Virus record (IMG/VR): IMGVR_UViG_3300005468_000008
Span: 1 to 43,088 of that record
Length of the DNA stretch: 43,088 nt
Strand: one strand, 5' to 3'
Source of the DNA: a virus
Shown: positions 501-35,400 of the stretch, piece by piece
Layout: each line of letters opens with the position of its first letter
How positions within the stretch are numbered: position 1 is the stretch's first letter
The notes under the pieces: generated by a model
Database searches by the model: none
Seen by the model: only the letters and a program-made list of their open reading frames with translations
What the model was told of the DNA's origin: nothing
Translations under genes and position numbers: made by a program

Positions 501-529
501 TTGACTTCCTTAAAACCGCTCCGTATATT
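501..529 (+). promoter_or_regulatory. Sigma70-type early promoter (rightward)
   Basis: TTGACT (501-506), a 17-nt spacer, then TATATT (524-529). It lies 28 nt upstream of the first rightward ORF (GGAG SD, ATG 557). Confidence 0.55.
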
Positions 530-787: not shown

Positions 788-806
788 TTCACTATTGGAG
801 ACCGCC

Positions 807-1115
807 ATGACCTACACCGAAGCAAAAGAAGCAATCGAATCATCAGACCGGGCAACCCTGGAGTCGGCCCTTGCTGAGTTTGACGAGGAAATTGTACTTG
901 CCGCGATAGCTTGCTCCATCAATCTCTCCGATATTGGAGAGGCGTACCAAGGTAGACACGCATCCGACGAGGATTTCGCCCAACAGCTATGTGAGGACGT
1001 CGGAGAGATCCCAAAAGATTTCCCGGCGTACATCCGTATTGACTGGGAAAGAACGGCGAGGAATATAATGATGGATTATTCGGAAGATAACGGACATTAT
1101 TTTCGCAACCTTTAG
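807..1115 (+). CDS. ardA: ArdA-like antirestriction protein (short form)
   Basis: The ORF-track entry is 795..1115; ATG 807 has better GGAG spacing. The acidic C-terminal half DEDFAQQLCEDVGEIPKDFPAYIRIDWERTARNIMMDYSEDNGHYFRNL follows the ArdA C-terminal pattern (IP..L..YID....ARDL...DY...G.YF). At about 103 aa it is shorter than canonical ArdA. Confidence 0.6.
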   Translation: MTYTEAKEAIESSDRATLESALAEFDEEIVLAAIACSINLSDIGEAYQGRHASDEDFAQQLCEDVGEIPKDFPAYIRIDWERTARNIMMDYSEDNGHYFRNL

Positions 1116-2341: not shown

Positions 2342-2911
2342 ATGACATTTAAACAGTTACAAGAAAAGATCGGCAAACAGAAACGCGCCGACTGGAAACA
2401 GCATCCCAACGGGAAGGGGTGGGTGAACAAGGCGGCAACCGTAGACGCTTCGGTGTTTATTGGAGACAGTGCAATCGTGTGGGCTGGTACGGTCTCGGGC
2501 GATGCGCAGGTCTACGGCAATGCGCAGGTCTACGGCAATGCGTGGGTCTACGGCTATGCGCGGGTCTACGGCAATGCGCAGGTCTACGGCTATGCGCGGG
2601 TCTACGGCAATGCGCAGGTCTACGGCAATGCGTGGGTCTACGGCAATGCGCAGGTCTACGGCAATGCGCAGGTCTACGGCAATGCGTGGGTCTACGGCAA
2701 TGCGTGGGAGAAATCCCCGCTCTACATCCAGGGTTCGCGTCATCCCCTCACAAACGCCAAACACGGCCACATACAAATTGGATGCCACCTCGGGACGTTC
2801 GCGTGGTGGGCTGAGAACTACAAACAGGTAGGCAAAGAGGCCGGGTACACCCCCGACGAAATCGAGGAATACGCCGAATACATCAAATTATTCAAGAAAG
2901 TAGGGCGATAG
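2342..2911 (+). CDS. Hexapeptide-repeat (left-handed beta-helix-like) protein
   Basis: 189 aa. The centre is 12 copies of G-[NYD]-A-[QWR]-V-Y. These are flanked by looser hexapeptide-like turns and by a C-terminal domain (SPLYIQGSRHPLTNAKHGHIQIGCH...). Confidence 0.8.
   Translation: MTFKQLQEKIGKQKRADWKQHPNGKGWVNKAATVDASVFIGDSAIVWAGTVSGDAQVYGNAQVYGNAWVYGYARVYGNAQVYGYARVYGNAQVYGNAWVYGNAQVYGNAQVYGNAWVYGNAWEKSPLYIQGSRHPLTNAKHGHIQIGCHLGTFAWWAENYKQVGKEAGYTPDEIEEYAEYIKLFKKVGR
2498..2713 (+). repeat. Tandem repeat, 12 x 18 bp (GGCAATGCGCAGGTCTAC)
   Basis: Units were read directly from the sequence. Only nucleotide 4 and nucleotides 10-11 of the unit vary, except in the last unit. Confidence 0.95.
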
Positions 2912-2913
2912 CC

Positions 2914-3954
2914 ATGTGTAAATTCTTAAGCGCAATCGTAAAACGTGACGGCGAGGTATTGTACCGTCCCGAAACAGACTCCCACGAGAACCTCGTGGAC
3001 TACTTTGGCTTGTCGGACTCGGGGGTGGATAACTTTGTGAGGGTGGAGTTTACATCGGACACCCCCGACAAACCGGATACCTATAAACTCCGGGTGGACG
3101 AGACAAAAACGCCCGCCTGGTTTGAGGAATATCGGGAGAAATCAATATCATATCTGCGTGACAAGATCAAGTCTATAATCGTCACGGGTGAGCGCAAAAT
3201 CCTGATGGGTGGGTGTTGGATATTGTCGGAGGCAAAGGTTGGGCGACTCTTGGCGACGAGGGTGATCTGGATGAAGAACTCTCAGGTCAACGAGATGCGG
3301 GAGAACTCTCGGGTCAACGTGATGTGGGAGAACTCTCAGGTCAACGCGATGCGGGAGAACTCTCAGGTCAACGCGATGCGGGGGAACTCTCGGGTCAACG
3401 TGATGTGGGAGAACTCTCGGGTCAACGTGATGTGGGAGAACTCTCAGGTCAACGAGATGCGGGAGAACTCTCGGGTCAACGTGATGTGGGAGAACTCTCA
3501 GGTCAACGTGATGTGGGAGAACTCTCAGGTCAACGCGATGCGGGGGAACTCTCAGGTCAACGAGATGCGGGGGAACTCTCAGGTCAACGAGATGTGGAAG
3601 AACTCTCAGGTCAACGAGATGCGGGAGAACTCTCGGGTCAACGTGATGCGGGAGAACTCTCAGGTCAACGCGATGCGGGGGAACTCTCAGGTCAACGTGA
3701 TGTGGGAGAACTCTCAGGTCAACGAGATGTGGAAGAACTCTCAGGTCAACGAGATGCGGGAGAACTCTCGGGTCAACGTGATGCGGGAGAACTCTCAGGT
3801 CAACGTGATGTGGGAGAACTCTTGGGTCAACGTGATGCGGGGGAACTCTCAGGTCAACGTGATGTGGGAGAACTCTTGGGTCAACGTGATGTTGGAGAAC
3901 TCCAAATCTCCCAACCCGCCCAAACAAGACTTCCGCGAAAAGGCTTCCCAATGA
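2914..3954 (+). CDS. Nonapeptide-repeat (predicted beta-solenoid) protein
   Basis: 346 aa. A non-repetitive N-terminal domain of about 120 aa is followed by 23 copies of [EGK]-N-S-[QRW]-V-N-[VAE]-M-[WRL]. The start follows the upstream stop by 2 nt, and the stop overlaps the next ATG (ATGA). Confidence 0.75.
   Translation: MCKFLSAIVKRDGEVLYRPETDSHENLVDYFGLSDSGVDNFVRVEFTSDTPDKPDTYKLRVDETKTPAWFEEYREKSISYLRDKIKSIIVTGERKILMGGCWILSEAKVGRLLATRVIWMKNSQVNEMRENSRVNVMWENSQVNAMRENSQVNAMRGNSRVNVMWENSRVNVMWENSQVNEMRENSRVNVMWENSQVNVMWENSQVNAMRGNSQVNEMRGNSQVNEMWKNSQVNEMRENSRVNVMRENSQVNAMRGNSQVNVMWENSQVNEMWKNSQVNEMRENSRVNVMRENSQVNVMWENSWVNVMRGNSQVNVMWENSWVNVMLENSKSPNPPKQDFREKASQ
3274..3894 (+). repeat. Tandem repeat, 23 x 27 bp (GAGAACTCTCAGGTCAACGTGATGTGG)
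   Basis: All 23 units were read out. 20 of 27 positions are invariant; variation is restricted to unit positions 1, 2, 10, 11, 20, 25 and 26. Confidence 0.95.
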
Positions 3955-4220
3955 CCGAGTTTACCAACATTTCACTCTACCCCCCCTCCATCCAAACGGG
4001 GAAAACGCAACACCCGGTCGTAATCGCCTGTATTGGGTGTCACGACGATTCCTTGGGGCTGACAGATGGCCCGGCTGAATCGGTGAGGCTCAACCTGTAC
4101 CGGAGTACTGCGTACCACTTGTGCCCAAAGTGTATCACGCCGGGACAGGCGGCCAGGAGGGATAAGGGGGTGACGGACTATCACCATCATAAATCGGCAG
4201 GGAAGAAGGTGGGGGGTTGA
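3951..4220 (+). CDS. Small zinc-ribbon protein (CxxC...CxxC)
   Basis: ATG 3951 overlaps the upstream stop (ATGA). Sequence begins MTEFTNISLYPP and carries CIGC and CPKC pairs. It shares a frame with the alternative repeat-frame ORF 3213..4220. Confidence 0.55.
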   Translation: MTEFTNISLYPPSIQTGKTQHPVVIACIGCHDDSLGLTDGPAESVRLNLYRSTAYHLCPKCITPGQAARRDKGVTDYHHHKSAGKKVGG

Positions 4221-4245
4221 CATTCACCGGAGAATTGATTATATT
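4217..4245 (+). promoter_or_regulatory. Near-consensus sigma70 promoter with no downstream ORF
   Basis: TTGACA (4217-4222), a 17-nt spacer, then TATATT (4240-4245). Downstream there are only 6- and 11-codon ATG ORFs before a hairpin at 4455-4473. Confidence 0.6.
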
Positions 4246-4251
4246 GTCCTC

Positions 4252-4473
4252 CTGCACTGGCCACGCAGACTTTTTCCCTCATTCACCGAACCTTCCCCGT
4301 GGCCGGAGCAGAGTTCTATCGGTGGGTGGGGGAAATTTTGTTTCTACCGCGTTGCCTGGGGGTGGCCCCAAAACTTCCGCCGTAAATGGTGGTTGGGTCG
4401 AGTAGAGAGGCCTCGATGATCGCGCCGGTCGAGAAAAGCGTCCAGTTCTAAAAACCCCCCTGTTGAAAGGGGG
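4252..4473 (+). ncRNA. Candidate non-coding transcript 1 (class unknown)
   Basis: Bounded by the promoter at 4217-4245 and the CCCCC/GGGGG hairpin at 4455-4473. It contains the helices 4259-4265/4298-4304 (GGCCACG/CGTGGCC) and 4357-4370 (TGGGG-GTGG-CCCCA). No credible ORF. Confidence 0.3.
4455..4473 (+). terminator. GC hairpin (possible terminator of transcript 1)
   Basis: CCCCCC-TGTTGAAA-GGGGG. There is no immediate U-tract, so intrinsic-terminator status is uncertain. Confidence 0.3.
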
Positions 4474-4706
4474 TGGGGGGATAGTAAAATGACGTTTTTG
4501 CTCTAGGCTTTCCGGGCTGGGCGACCCTTCGGGTGTGACGCTTACTCGCCGTCGCTCGTAAGCGGATGAGAGTGTGAATGTCAGTCGGGAGAAATCAAAG
4601 TCGGTCGAACTTCGGCCAGCACACCTATAAAAACCGCTCTTGATCTTGAATAACTAGAGCGGGTGAAAATGCTTTTCGAATCAAACTGGGGATCGCGGCG
4701 GGAACG

Positions 4707-5099
4707 ATGGGAAGAGGTAAGGCGAGAAAGTTCGGAGAGGGGTATTACAAGGGGGTTTGGTCAAGGCGAAATAAAGACTACGGGTTCGTGTACGTTTTCG
4801 ACCTCGGCTTTGATACCCTTTACAAAATAGGATGCTCAAAAAGCTGGGAGAAACGACTCAGGCATCTCCGTGCGGGGAACCCAAACATGGGATTGGTTGC
4901 ACTCTGGAGGGTGGGGCATATGAAGCGAGACGAAGAAAAAATCCATCTTGTGATGTCGCACCGGTGGGTCGAACGAGAAATCTTTAGGTTGCGGGGGGAT
5001 GATATCTTATTATTAAAACAGTTCTTTCAGGATCACCCAGTCGATGACTTCCGCGACGATAATTGGAAAGTCCTTCGCAGACTCGCAGGTATCGAATGA
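4707..5099 (+). CDS. T5orf172 / MUG113-type (GIY-YIG-like) domain protein
   Basis: 130 aa. YGFVYVFD...LYKIGCSKSWEKRLRHLRAGNP...EEKIHLVMSHRWVEREIFRL matches the T5orf172 domain pattern (G.vYv...-KIG.S....RL..L...-P...E..iH......-E.F.L). Confidence 0.75.
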   Translation: MGRGKARKFGEGYYKGVWSRRNKDYGFVYVFDLGFDTLYKIGCSKSWEKRLRHLRAGNPNMGLVALWRVGHMKRDEEKIHLVMSHRWVEREIFRLRGDDILLLKQFFQDHPVDDFRDDNWKVLRRLAGIE

Positions 5100-15287: not shown

Positions 15288-16598
15288 ATGACTAAGATCA
15301 GTCGCCTGATTCTACCCACCCTGGCCCTCCTTTTACTCAATACTCTGAGTAATTCACAAGACCTCGTTCGCTACGTCTGGATACCCTCATGGGACGTAAA
15401 CATCCCATCGACTACCTCGAACTATGGTGACATGCCGCTCTCGGAGTTCAGGTGGAGCGTGGGTACACACTACTCCTCGTTTGCCGTCCCGATGGCCTCA
15501 AATGGCTCCTCGATCACATGGAACAATCTCCTGATCGACCGGAGGCAACAGGTGAACGCGGCGGCACACGCGGCGGGTAAGCCTATATATTTGTGCCTTG
15601 GGGGGTCTGGGTCTGACGGGTGGATGACTTCGGCGTTCTCACCGGCAAACAGGGCCAACGCGATCCAAACGTTACTCGCGGCTCGCAGAGAATACAAGTA
15701 CGACGGGTTTGACTTCGATTGGGAGCCGTTCGGTAGGTCTGACACCGCAATCTTCTATCCCTTTGTCCGTGAACTCTATGCCGCCCTTGCCAACGAACCA
15801 ACCTACTTCGGCACACCGGAACGTCCAGCAATCGTCCTCACCATGTCCCCTGCCGGGAACCAGTGGGGGTTAGCGTTGAAACCGATGGGACCCTACCTCA
15901 AGTTTGTCGTCCTGATGGCTTACGACAAGATGGGGACGTGGACCGTCGTATCGTACTACGATTGCGCGGTGACATCCGGTGGGGTGCGTGTAGGCTCACA
16001 GGAGCCAGCCACAATGGAGCGTCAGGCCGGACAAACAGTGGGCTTCGACCCCAAGAAGATCATTGTTGGCCTGGATGTGATGGGGGCATTAATGAGCGGC
16101 GTGACAGCCCCAATGCAAACCATCCCGTCCGGCGTAACCATCAACGCAGACTACAAGTTCGACACATTCTACCGGGATGTGCTGATGGCTGATCCCAAGC
16201 CGGAGATAAAGTACGACGCCGTGGCGGGTGCGTATTGGTGTGCTAAGGGTGGGAACTTCTACTCGTTCATGGGTGCGCCGGGGCACGACCTGGCAATCGG
16301 CAAGGCGTTCTCATTCCTCAAGGGGAAGGGGTACGGTGGTGTCGCCTTGTGGAATTGGTCGGAAGCCTACTTGGGGTTTACCAAGTTCACCCCATCCAAC
16401 TATCCGGTCTTGGATAGGGACTGGGCTGGAAGCGCGTTCCTCAAGTATGCCGGGGTGGTAGTCCCACCTCCTCCCCCGCCACCCCCAACCGATACATCAG
16501 CGTGTGACACGGTGTACCGGGTTATCACGATCAGAGATTCCCTGTTCTTCCGGCTTGTGCCCATTATCTCCGGGTACGACACCGTGAGGGTGAGGTAG
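15288..16598 (+). CDS. Secreted glycoside hydrolase family 18 (chitinase-like) protein
   Basis: Signal peptide MTKISRLILPTLALLLLNTLSNS. The GH18 catalytic motif DGFDFDWE is present. A run of nine prolines forms a linker to a short C-terminal segment. Confidence 0.85.
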   Translation: MTKISRLILPTLALLLLNTLSNSQDLVRYVWIPSWDVNIPSTTSNYGDMPLSEFRWSVGTHYSSFAVPMASNGSSITWNNLLIDRRQQVNAAAHAAGKPIYLCLGGSGSDGWMTSAFSPANRANAIQTLLAARREYKYDGFDFDWEPFGRSDTAIFYPFVRELYAALANEPTYFGTPERPAIVLTMSPAGNQWGLALKPMGPYLKFVVLMAYDKMGTWTVVSYYDCAVTSGGVRVGSQEPATMERQAGQTVGFDPKKIIVGLDVMGALMSGVTAPMQTIPSGVTINADYKFDTFYRDVLMADPKPEIKYDAVAGAYWCAKGGNFYSFMGAPGHDLAIGKAFSFLKGKGYGGVALWNWSEAYLGFTKFTPSNYPVLDRDWAGSAFLKYAGVVVPPPPPPPPTDTSACDTVYRVITIRDSLFFRLVPIISGYDTVRVR

Positions 16599-34041: not shown

Positions 34042-34435
34042 CTTTCTTTCCTTCTTTTTTATAAGCGTTGTGAACTCGTTTGGCGTGGTTCATAAGTGCG
34101 ATAGCTTTCTCGAACTCTTCACCACACTGTTTACATCGGAGCATCTTAGTGTACGGTCTCACGACTCCTTCGGTATGGAACGCCCTGTTGTGAGCGGCAA
34201 GTGCCATAGGCAACTTGAACCCCAAATCACACTTCGGACAATAAAGGGGGGCAGTTACTTCACCCCCCCTAAACATACCAGAGAAACGAGAATCCCGCAG
34301 TATCCTACTGGCCACACCATCCGGGAGATCGAGGTACGGGTGGAAGTCGTACTTCCTTGTCCGCAACGCTCCCCGGCGTGCCCGTAAGGACACCGAAAAA
34401 CCATCAGACGTGCCGATGTATGTTACTCTGACCAT
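33926..34435 (-). CDS. Tandem classical C2H2 zinc-finger protein
   Basis: Two fingers, YCPKCDLGFKLPMALAAHNRAFH and RCKQCGEEFEKAIALMNHAKRVH, both fit C-x2-C-x3-F-x5-L-x2-H-x4-H. TAATG overlap with the HNH gene. The 3-prime 116 nt overlap the next gene out of frame. Confidence 0.7.
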   Translation of the reverse strand: MVRVTYIGTSDGFSVSLRARRGALRTRKYDFHPYLDLPDGVASRILRDSRFSGMFRGGEVTAPLYCPKCDLGFKLPMALAAHNRAFHTEGVVRPYTKMLRCKQCGEEFEKAIALMNHAKRVHNAYKKEGKKDEKQVHAGVHSGGISLDVAGDGPGDSHPERNDGGLQEA

Positions 34436-35400
34436 TACGACCAGGTAGTCGGGATGGTAGCCGCCGTCGAGTGCGTGTAGAGAATCGCAGACGACTGGTT
34501 GACGACTGTGGAATCAACCCCGGAGTCCTGCGAGAGCGCGTAGTCCGCCCTGCGATCACCGTAGATCGAACCACCGGCAAACCCCATGAGGTTGCCGTAA
34601 TCCATATTGTTACTACCGCTTTGGTCTGGGGAAACTTGAGCGGCGGGAACCACATTTCTGAGTTCCTCTTGCGTTTCATTTATATCGCAAGATCGGACTA
34701 TTGCATCCCATTGCTGGGTCTTCTCGTTTAGTCTCTCACGGTGGCTCACGCCTTCCGCCTCGTTGTCCCGTCGGACTTTCGAGTCAATTAGAGAAGATTT
34801 ATAGAGGACAATTATATCCTTAGAGTTCTTCCATTCCAAAAGGGTCTTATCGCGCTTACTCCAGTTACATTCCTTGCAAACTACCGCAAGATTTGTAATG
34901 TCGCCCGATCCACCTTTTGAAACTGGAAGAATGTGGTCTATGTGATACTGAGTGATTTCCTTTGCACAATACTTGCATTTGCCGTCCCACTCGCCTAGAA
35001 GTTTCACGATGGCCGCCTTGGTCGGCTGATACTGACCAAATTTCACACGACGAGCGTGTTGGTTGGCGCGGTTCATAATCGCGTACTCTTCTTTGTGTTC
35101 TGCAATCCAGCGACGAGTCGCGGCCCGATGTTTCTCCGGGTTAGCGGCCCTTTTGGCTGTTTGACGAGCAAGTATTGAGTCCCGGTTCTTCAAGTAGGAA
35201 CGCCTTTTATAAAGCTTGTTGCGTTCTTTGTCGAGTTCGGGATGGAGTTTACGCCACTTCCGACAAGCCTCTGCGCCATGAGCCGACTGCCACCTCTTCT
35301 TTGCGGACATCTCGTTGCCGGAATAACAATCACAGCAGAGAGTCCCGCGTTTGCGGAATTGGTCAACAGTTTTCTCGATATGGCACTGAGCGCAGATCAT
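34435..35400 (-). CDS. HNH endonuclease (classical HNHc) with a Cys-rich N-terminus and an unassigned C-terminal extension
   Basis: CKYCAKEITQYHIDHILPVSKGGSGDITNLAVVCKECNWSKRDK is a canonical HNH motif. TAATG overlap with the capsid gene stop. Confidence 0.85.
   Translation of the reverse strand: MICAQCHIEKTVDQFRKRGTLCCDCYSGNEMSAKKRWQSAHGAEACRKWRKLHPELDKERNKLYKRRSYLKNRDSILARQTAKRAANPEKHRAATRRWIAEHKEEYAIMNRANQHARRVKFGQYQPTKAAIVKLLGEWDGKCKYCAKEITQYHIDHILPVSKGGSGDITNLAVVCKECNWSKRDKTLLEWKNSKDIIVLYKSSLIDSKVRRDNEAEGVSHRERLNEKTQQWDAIVRSCDINETQEELRNVVPAAQVSPDQSGSNNMDYGNLMGFAGGSIYGDRRADYALSQDSGVDSTVVNQSSAILYTHSTAATIPTTWS

Follow-up and report, generated by a model that had tools for sequence, protein, structure and literature searches.

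Two adjacent repeat genes of a phage early operon share a Gln/Arg/Trp alphabet, probably as independent members of two solenoid protein families

The stretch of viral DNA analyzed here, IMG/VR virus record IMGVR_UViG_3300005468_000008 (positions 1 to 43,088; hereafter, the window), comprises the whole or a large part of a phage genome and contains two adjacent genes, which we denote gene 1 and gene 2, that encode arrays of near-identical repeats, hexapeptides in gene 1 and nonapeptides in gene 2. An earlier note on this DNA held that, in both arrays, the most variable residue alternates among Gln, Arg and Trp (Q/R/W), and proposed a common mutational or selective process acting on the pair, along with a paired decoy, mimic or anti-defense function. 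The analysis described here indicates that the juxtaposition of the two genes is specific to one lineage and does not reflect a conserved two-gene system, that gene 1 is a further member of an already known family, and that gene 2 represents a large undescribed family of phage proteins, comprising 2,600 or more clusters at 50% identity. We favor, and consider probable, the explanation that the two genes are independent members of two families of early proteins, and that homogenization of the repeats, selection and the structure of the genetic code together account for the Q/R/W alphabet. The two genes and their parts are as follows:

2342..2911 (+): gene 1, encoding a 189-aa beta-solenoid protein with YdcK-type hexapeptides, from a family widespread in phages (PF18836; phrog_5070/7964; 2F9C)
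2342..2494 (+): conserved N-terminal segment of gene 1 with the motif DWxQHxNGGGW, and the first irregular coils
2495..2710 (+): hexapeptide array of gene 1, 12 units YGNAxV, with x being Q in 6, W in 4 and R in 2 (codon table)
2711..2908 (+): C-terminal domain of gene 1, ~66 aa, SPLxIxG..H....G.I.IGC...W...GYT..EI.EY (alignment; phrog_32789, 1.3e-4)
2914..3954 (+): gene 2, 346 aa, with a nonapeptide solenoid behind an N-terminal head, undescribed family (homologs; AlphaFold2 model)
2914..3276 (+): N-terminal head of gene 2, aa 1-121 (alignment, profile search, AlphaFold2)
3277..3897 (+): nonapeptide array of gene 2, 23 units NS[Q/R/W]VN[V/E/A]M[R/W/L][E/G/K] of 10 unit types (codon table)
3898..3951 (+): short, basic, Pro-rich C-terminal tail of gene 2, NSKSPNPPKQDFREKASQ, modeled as disordered

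Two arrays with few variable codons

The open reading frames (ORFs), the codon tables and the output of Tandem Repeats Finder, which detects an 18-nt array at 2498-2704 with 11.5 copies and a 27-nt array at 3275-3902 with 23.3 copies (91% matches in each), agree on the presence of two adjacent solenoid-repeat genes with different units, as previously noted. Position 5 of the gene 1 unit is CAG (Q) in six, TGG (W) in four and CGG (R) in two of the 12 units, and position 3 is AAT in nine, TAT in two and GAT in one, with the AAT to TAT change (N to Y) confined to the two R units; the remaining codons are identical between units except at the ends of the array (TCG in the first unit, GAG in the last). 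Across the 23 units of gene 2, position 3 is CAG (Q) in 15, CGG (R) in 6 and TGG (W) in 2; position 6 is GTG, GAG or GCG (V/E/A; 12, 7 and 4 units, respectively); position 8 is CGG, TGG or TTG (R/W/L; 12, 10 and 1); and position 9 is GAG, GGG or AAG (E/G/K; 16, 5 and 2). All other codons of the nonapeptide are the same in every unit, and neither array contains a single synonymous difference. The order of the unit types in gene 2, ABCDBBABEDFGAHDEGAHEIEJ, points to block duplication.

Accordingly, the set of codons described earlier, CAG, CGG and TGG, is found in both genes, but position 3 is not the most variable one in gene 2, where positions 6 and 8 vary more. The alphabet is indeed restricted at the Q/R/W sites, but two further variable sites of gene 2 use V/E/A and E/G/K. 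Likewise, CAG, CGG and TGG are nearest neighbors linked by single transitions, but not all changes between units belong to this class: the variants also include the transversions GAG/GTG, GAG/GCG, TGG/TTG and AAT/TAT.

Gene 1 is a member of a known family of hexapeptide solenoid proteins

The protein product of gene 1 matches the Pfam family B_solenoid_ydck (PF18836) with an E-value of 1.4e-18 and 65.6 bits against a cut-off of 30, in seven matched stretches, as well as phrog_5070 (2e-29) and phrog_7964 (2e-28), and shows sequence similarity to the solved YdcK structures 2F9C and 2PIG (E-value 1.1e-9). On the strength of these sequence matches, gene 1 is predicted to adopt a left-handed beta-helix fold. 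In hexapeptide left-handed beta-helices, positions i and i+4 face inward, and position i+5 faces the solvent; we take V and A of the gene 1 unit to be the inward-facing i and i+4, and the x position to be the solvent-facing i+5. The family includes 7,026 database homologs and is represented in 77 phage records. An alignment of 40 homologs shows that the number of hexapeptide units ranges from about 4 to more than 25, that W18, Q20, H21, N23, G24, G26 and W27 are invariant or nearly so, and that P126, G131, E176 and Y177 in the C-terminal domain are invariant; this domain also gives a weak, sub-threshold match to VMAP-M19. The isoelectric point (pI) of the protein is 9.2.

Homologs of gene 1 are located among early, DNA replication or recombination genes in the cultured phages Sfi19, Aer_P220, Boilgate (a Mycobacterium phage) and phiRM10, for example, upstream of the RNA polymerase in Aeromonas Aer_P220 and between cox and gam/rad52 in Ruminococcus phiRM10. 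The statement of the earlier note that no system of this kind had been described applies to gene 2, for which Pfam, PHROG and the PDB yielded no match, but not to gene 1; a search of the literature for the YdcK solenoid, PF18836, DUF7666 or Sfi19 orf229 returned nothing relevant. We also considered the possibility that gene 1 is a hexapeptide acyltransferase and rejected it: the match to the LpxA-like family PF00132 reaches 13.3 bits against a cut-off of 27, and the NCBIfam acyltransferase models score far below their cut-offs.

Such proteins are often misannotated in public records, and homologs of gene 1 provide several examples. In Acidovorax phage AP1 (region 3127-4005), the annotated ORF is an antisense one that runs through the repeats, 'CRISPR spacers' are called inside the hexapeptide array in Vibrio phage records (e.g., 1.034.X), and other homologs are labeled 'MFS-type transporter' or 'glycerol kinase'. 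The hexapeptide array of the window (2491-2708) is 91.7% identical at the DNA level to the AP1 array (3501-3718), with different end domains in the two proteins. Because such arrays are homogenized, this similarity amounts to the sharing of one 18-nt unit, and it could stem either from convergent choice of codons or from exchange of an array module.

Gene 2 represents a large undescribed family of phage proteins

Comparison of gene 2 with Pfam, PHROG, NCBIfam and PADLOC detected no match, but a word-indexed search retrieved 152 homologs, and a profile of the head alone yielded 2,634 representatives of 50% identity clusters at E<=1e-3, the match beginning at or near residue 1 in nearly all hits listed. 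Within the head, eight residues (M1, F4, S6, H24, E45, D62, P67, W69) are invariant and three more (C2, S23, F41) almost so; the near-invariant Cys2 is located right behind the initiator Met. Given the conservation of Cys2 together with His24, Glu45 and Asp62, this domain, for which no relative in fold is known, may harbor a site for catalysis or metal binding. The AlphaFold2 model of gene 2, built with 62 homologs, has a predicted local distance difference test score (pLDDT) of 82.4 and a predicted template modeling score of 0.72. It comprises a compact head (residues 1-121; pLDDT above 90, and 92.3 when the head is modeled alone), a solenoid in which each nonapeptide contributes a strand of five residues (positions 3-7) and a turn of four, and a C-terminal tail (residues 330-346) with pLDDT below 50; homologs terminate in similar K/P-rich tails. 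Judged from the assignment of strand and turn only, positions 6, 8 and 9 would be exposed to the solvent; the number of nonapeptide units per coil is likewise an inference. The pI is 6.2 overall and 5.3 for the repeat region.

A PDB fold search with the head gave no match (best E-value 0.098), and a profile search of PDB sequences with the head gave nothing; in BFVD, the head matches the folds of uncharacterized phage proteins only. The PDB fold search with the whole gene 2 model likewise gave no significant match (best E-value 0.058), the nearest, non-significant folds being beta-solenoids (RTX blocks, SufBD, tapirin and autotransporters). Behind heads of the gene 2 type, we found tails consisting of nonapeptides, octapeptides (GGTVNxI[R/W/C] and AGYATIQD), heptapeptides and classical pentapeptide repeats. 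Conversely, the NSQVNxM[R/W] nonapeptide array is also part of a second architecture, in which a short N-terminal segment is followed by the array and a C-terminal domain of ~150 aa with weak similarity to DUF7666, below threshold at 22-25 bits (cut-off 27). The variety of tails and the second architecture imply that the solenoid is an exchangeable module.

Genes of this family are found in early operons, as in the window and in Dulem virus 35, where the gene lies just after a cro-like repressor. Gene 2 thus reveals a large, unannotated family of early phage proteins in which a conserved head is combined with interchangeable nona-, octa-, hepta- or pentapeptide solenoid tails, and such proteins are candidates for functions in host take-over or counter-defense. 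Many metagenome and viral contigs stop inside, or a few bases from, a nonapeptide array, so that these genes appear to be systematically truncated in metagenome assemblies.

The two genes are neighbors in one lineage

The two genes are unrelated by sequence, in agreement with the earlier note. Homology between them was considered and rejected: profile comparison with hhalign gives a probability of 5%, and BLASTP aligns just the GN[A/S]QV motif, each unit requiring a gap of three residues. The possibility that they nevertheless form a dedicated, co-evolving two-gene system (a paired decoy, mimic or anti-defense module, which would explain the shared Q/R/W) gains some plausibility from the 2-nt spacing, with probable translational coupling, from the shared location with an ArdA-like gene in the same early operon, and from the conservation of the pair in a sibling contig (locus L050). 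However, the sibling contig is the same phage, being 99.7-100% identical to the window over 5 kb. Loci were found better with a degenerate DNA pattern for two consecutive units than with a single-protein query, which gave three viral loci. Among 48 loci with a gene 2 homolog, 24 of which include at least 1.5 kb of upstream sequence, a gene 1 homolog is present in L050 only. Among 36 loci detected by the head domain (303 kb, including a complete phage genome and a 43-kb scaffold), L050 again is the only one with both genes; many loci cover little sequence, and contigs often end at the arrays.

A profile hidden Markov model search for genes of the gene 1 family in the complete genome of Dulem virus 35 and in the 43-kb scaffold MT835516, both of which carry gene 2 homologs, found none; no PF18836 neighbor is present near two other gene 2 homologs on long contigs (P0012 and P0058); and none of the seven phage loci with a gene 1 homolog that were checked contains a gene 2 homolog within 3 kb. 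We therefore rejected a conserved module, and the claim of a paired system fails on the same grounds: the R/Q/W site is present in unrelated phages that have gene 1 without gene 2, and the R/W site in more than 100 gene 2 homologs without a gene 1 neighbor. Independent occurrence of the homologs is one of the two conditions under which the earlier note would regard the shared alphabet as coincidence. The common process proposed earlier survives in its general form but not as one acting on the pair, given that each family shows the alphabet independently. Neither does composition support a decoy or a mimic, the pI values of 9.2 and 6.2 being unlike those of acidic DNA mimics, and neither gene has a PADLOC match at E<=0.1. 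Taken together, these observations make a dedicated two-gene system very unlikely.

The same few positions are polymorphic in independent arrays

Homologs of both genes for the analysis of variable sites were gathered by shared 5-residue words. The x position in the top 120 homologs of gene 1 is R in 31%, Q in 26% and W in 21% of the cases. Codons at this site include CGG (10), CAG (7) and TGG (4) in Acidovorax AP1; CGG (11), TGG (8) and CAG (6) in Ruminococcus phiRM10; and TGG (6), AGG (5) and GAG (2) in Streptococcus Sfi19, with similar sets in phages of Aeromonas, Vibrio and Mycobacterium. In 120 homologs of gene 2, position 8 is R in 504 and W in 438 of ~1,210 units, and both residues occur at this position in 101 of 115 arrays of the family, whereas Q predominates at position 3, with R less common and W rare. 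The codons at position 8 in the gene 2 family are TGG (126), AGG (79) and CGG (72), with only six AGA, even at ~30% G+C; the use of CGG and AGG but hardly AGA implies that Arg is kept one step from Trp (TGG).

Among 30 distinct nonapeptide arrays, amino acid polymorphism is found at position 6 in 30, at position 8 in 30 and at position 9 in 29, compared to two arrays for positions 2 and 7, and synonymous polymorphism is limited to 1-5 arrays per position. Similarly, all 11 hexapeptide arrays are polymorphic at positions 2 and 4, and 10 of them at position 6. The codons of the fixed positions differ between arrays, e.g., GGC/GCG/GTC/TAC in the window, GGT/GCA/GTC/TAT in Sfi19 and GGT/GCT/GTA/TCC in phiRM10, which is the signature of concerted evolution by exchange of units; despite this homogenization, the variable codon stays mixed in every array. 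Arrays with identical DNA are present in independent contigs, and related arrays differ by insertions or deletions of units.

The structure of the genetic code accounts for the shared alphabet. By enumeration, CGG has just two non-synonymous transition neighbors, TGG and CAG; transitions from CAG lead to CGG, CAA or a stop, and those from TGG to CGG or stops, such that the stop-free, transition-closed set starting at CAG is exactly {Q,R,W}. This property would also fit neutral drift, whereby the variable sites are unconstrained positions of recently amplified repeats and their heterogeneity is not selected; the spread of a few original mutations by block duplication, evident from the unit order of gene 2, and the many residues used by distant homologs point in the same direction. 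However, drift is hard to reconcile with the polymorphism of the same positions in 30 of 30 independent arrays in the near absence of synonymous polymorphism, with homogenization that fixes array-specific synonymous codons but not R or W, or with Arg codons that remain one step from TGG where AGA would be expected. In addition, Pro, Gly and Ser are equally accessible by mutation but rare at the variable sites, which we read as selection for bulky residues, and for a mixture of these, at putatively exposed positions of the solenoid. Hence drift alone appears rather unlikely to us.

Targeted hypermutation, that is, rewriting of codons in both arrays by a diversity-generating retroelement or a deaminase-like process, was suggested by the wholly non-synonymous nature of the variation, its restriction to a few codons and the changes that involve adenine (A-to-G in CAG to CGG and GAG to GGG; changes at an adenine in GAG to GTG or GCG). 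We rejected the arrays as retroelement targets: no reverse transcriptase was detected among the ORFs scanned, which included nearly all large ones, no further copy of either unit that could serve as a template is present elsewhere in the window, and the C/T and G/T differences CGG/TGG and TGG/TTG are not adenine changes. Furthermore, gene 1 is identical in the window and the sibling contig, with zero point differences, array DNA is identical across independent contigs, and the same toggles are observed in phages of many unrelated hosts. Hypermutation is thus extremely unlikely.

Several observations weigh against the combination of homogenization, selection and the genetic code as a complete explanation or limit its scope. 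The word-based collection is biased toward repeats similar to the query. In a less biased sample, of proteins retrieved with the head alone, position 8 is R in 24%, Y in 19% and W in 15%, followed by S, L, C, H and F, so that R and W jointly make up merely 39%, and position 3 is Q in 19%, K in 19% and T in 16%, with V, S and R also present and W not among the residues listed; the earlier suggestion of one alphabet shared by the pair is at odds with the use of Y, S, L, C, K and T at the variable sites of distant gene 2 homologs. From the head-only sample, we conclude that the strict R/W toggle is characteristic of the NSQVNxM subfamily and of the GGTVNxI octapeptide on heads of the gene 2 type, the last position of which is R in 39%, W in 31% and C in 14%; Q/R/W at position 3 is a peculiarity of the window phage and a few relatives. 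The transversions among the variants imply that mutation bias alone fails to explain the alphabets.

The order of the residues along the arrays gives no further regularity in gene 2, where R/W autocorrelation is absent at lags 1-7, and on this ground an alternating Arg/Trp cation-pi ladder was rejected. In the gene 1 family, autocorrelation is negative at lag 1 (z = -6.6) and positive at lags 2 (+4.2) and 3 (+2.0); avoidance of the same residue by neighbors along with the enrichment at lags 2 and 3 fits 18-residue higher-order units, not a ladder.

Finally, the numbers of units in short-read metagenome assemblies may be wrong. Gene 2 of the sibling contig (8001-8582) lacks 17 units, a difference of exactly 459 nt, which is either real variation of copy number or collapse of the repeat in a short-read assembly. 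Together with the ends of many metagenomic contigs inside or beside such arrays, this difference could indicate that the arrays, or their variant pattern and length, are short-read chimeras that represent no real haplotype. For gene 1, however, unit types and variable positions recur in the cultured, fully sequenced phages Sfi19, AP1, phiRM10 and Boilgate; identical arrays were assembled independently in several samples; and misassembly could alter the number and order of units but not the alphabet. We consider such an artifact quite unlikely.

We therefore set aside the reading of the Q/R/W pattern as a property of the pair and replace it with a testable general rule for homogenized solenoid repeats of phages: a few positions, which would be exposed on the rod, are kept heterogeneous, and the genetic code restricts the residues that appear there.

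A possible mode of action of mixed solenoid repeats

Under the explanation that we favor, each protein consists of one or two conserved end domains and a beta-solenoid rod of variable length made of near-identical units. The units of every array are homogenized to array-specific codons, most probably by unequal recombination, and close relatives differ by whole units, but a few positions remain polymorphic in essentially every array of either family. The residues at these sites are mainly bulky, W, R and Q in the gene 1 family and W or R, followed by Y, L, C and F, in the gene 2 family, the codon neighborhood under selection offering W, R, Q and, less often, L. Selection for a mixture of residues could tune a binding stripe or else keep a regular rod soluble and stable, the latter because a ladder of Trp only or Arg only would be unfavorable.

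The location in the early operon makes a host-directed binding role, possibly an anti-host one, plausible for both proteins. In the early phase of infection, they might serve as rods that bind a host target or provide a scaffold for it, with the end domains carrying the specific activity and the solenoid setting length and valency. We propose this class of function tentatively, as possible but short of an even chance, and for any particular host target, the probability is much lower.

A more specific scenario is a combinatorial recognition stripe, composed of the toggles of the nonapeptide (E/V, R/W and E/G at positions 6, 8 and 9, each by a single base change) together with the hexapeptide R/Q/W site, that is reshuffled by gain, loss and exchange of units. 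Such reshuffling would maintain binding to a fast-evolving host target, a defense protein or a polymer, and the gene 2 head with Cys2/His24/Glu45/Asp62 would supply an enzymatic or effector activity. We regard this scenario as unlikely; if true, both proteins would be solenoid-based variable binders.

The early operon and its surroundings

Among the genes of the window are those for a P22-type portal, a large terminase, a capsid protein and an SU10-type adaptor, as well as HNH genes. A series of small genes, closely packed on the plus strand, begins after a promoter-like site. The features of this operon outside genes 1 and 2 are:

501..529 (+): promoter-like site upstream of the operon, TTGACT-17-TATATT, 10 of 12 positions of the consensus
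795..1115 (+): ArdA-like gene (PF07275, 29 bits against a cut-off of 27; phrog_14321, anti-restriction, 2e-12)
3951..4220 (+): probable next gene of the operon, 89 aa, CxxC...CxxC, with a gene call in the sibling contig (8579-8848 of L050)

The ArdA-like gene belongs to the same early operon as genes 1 and 2 and ends 1,227 nt upstream of gene 1, close to the distance of about 1.2 kb given earlier. Gene 1 is preceded by the ribosome-binding site GAGGGA, and the 2-nt spacer before gene 2 follows its TAG stop codon. The ATG of the 3951-4220 ORF overlaps the stop of gene 2 (ATGA). The CxxC...CxxC pattern of its product is zinc-ribbon-like, and family searches with this product gave no match. This ORF shares its frame with an alternative reading of the nonapeptide array that is open from one end of the array to the other (ORF 3213-4220), so that a -1 frameshift in the array would fuse the array product to the 3951-4220 ORF; inspection of the nonapeptide array by eye revealed no canonical slippery site. 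The arrays (2357-2831 and 3148-4220) are stop-free in all three forward frames and one reverse frame, which gives rise to long spurious ORFs such as 2357..2788 (-) and 3148..3951 (-).

The ~750 nt that follow gene 2 (3955-4706) contain few good ORFs, two promoter-like sites (4217-4245, with 11 of 12 positions, and 4463-4490) and a terminator-like hairpin on the minus strand (4473-4455), and this region probably is an operon boundary. Just downstream of the repeat genes, a T5orf172/MUG113 (GIY-YIG-like) protein is encoded at 4707-5099 (+). Elsewhere in the window, there are genes for a GH18 chitinase-like protein (15288-16598, +) and for an HNH endonuclease inserted among the head genes (34435-35400, -). 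Rfam and tRNA scans of the window came up empty.

Comparison with known systems

The anti-restriction DNA mimics ArdA and Ocr resemble genes 1 and 2 in their early operon context, here with an ArdA-like gene in the same neighborhood, but the two proteins are not acidic, and no sequence or fold similarity to these mimics was found. Mimicry of the ArdA/Ocr type by either gene was accordingly rejected, given the pI values and the lack of a family match.

Bactofilins (PF04519) were considered for gene 1 because many of its homologs have a precomputed PF04519 hit, and several phage records name such homologs polymer-forming cytoskeletal proteins. This assignment was rejected as well: gene 1 itself falls below the threshold, with 16.7 bits against a cut-off of 27.9.

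Gene 2 shares with the RTX nonapeptide beta-roll (e.g., the adenylate cyclase toxin blocks, 6SUS) the 9-residue unit that consists of a short strand and a turn, but the fold match is not significant (E-value 0.13), and the unit NSQVNxMxx has neither GG nor D and lacks the calcium-binding consensus GGxGxDxUx. Unlike the RTX proteins, gene 2 is an early phage product, in which no secretion signal was recognized by eye. Based on the missing consensus and the E-value, an RTX beta-roll was rejected for gene 2.

Pentapeptide-repeat proteins, including the DNA-mimicking Qnr and MfpA, are rod-like beta-solenoids as gene 2 appears to be, and some proteins with a gene 2-type head bear classical A(D/N)LxG pentapeptide tails in place of the nonapeptides. 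Gene 2 differs from Qnr and MfpA in that its period is 9 rather than 5 and it is not strongly acidic, even in the repeats; with these differences and no Pfam match, a pentapeptide-repeat DNA mimic was rejected.

Gene 1 shares with the YdcK family (Salmonella YdcK, 2F9C and 2PIG) the hexapeptide pattern V-x-G-x-A-x and the match to PF18836. In contrast to YdcK, gene 1 encodes a 189-aa phage protein with far more regular units that are nearly identical at the DNA level, and has an N-terminal motif and a 66-aa C-terminal domain of its own.

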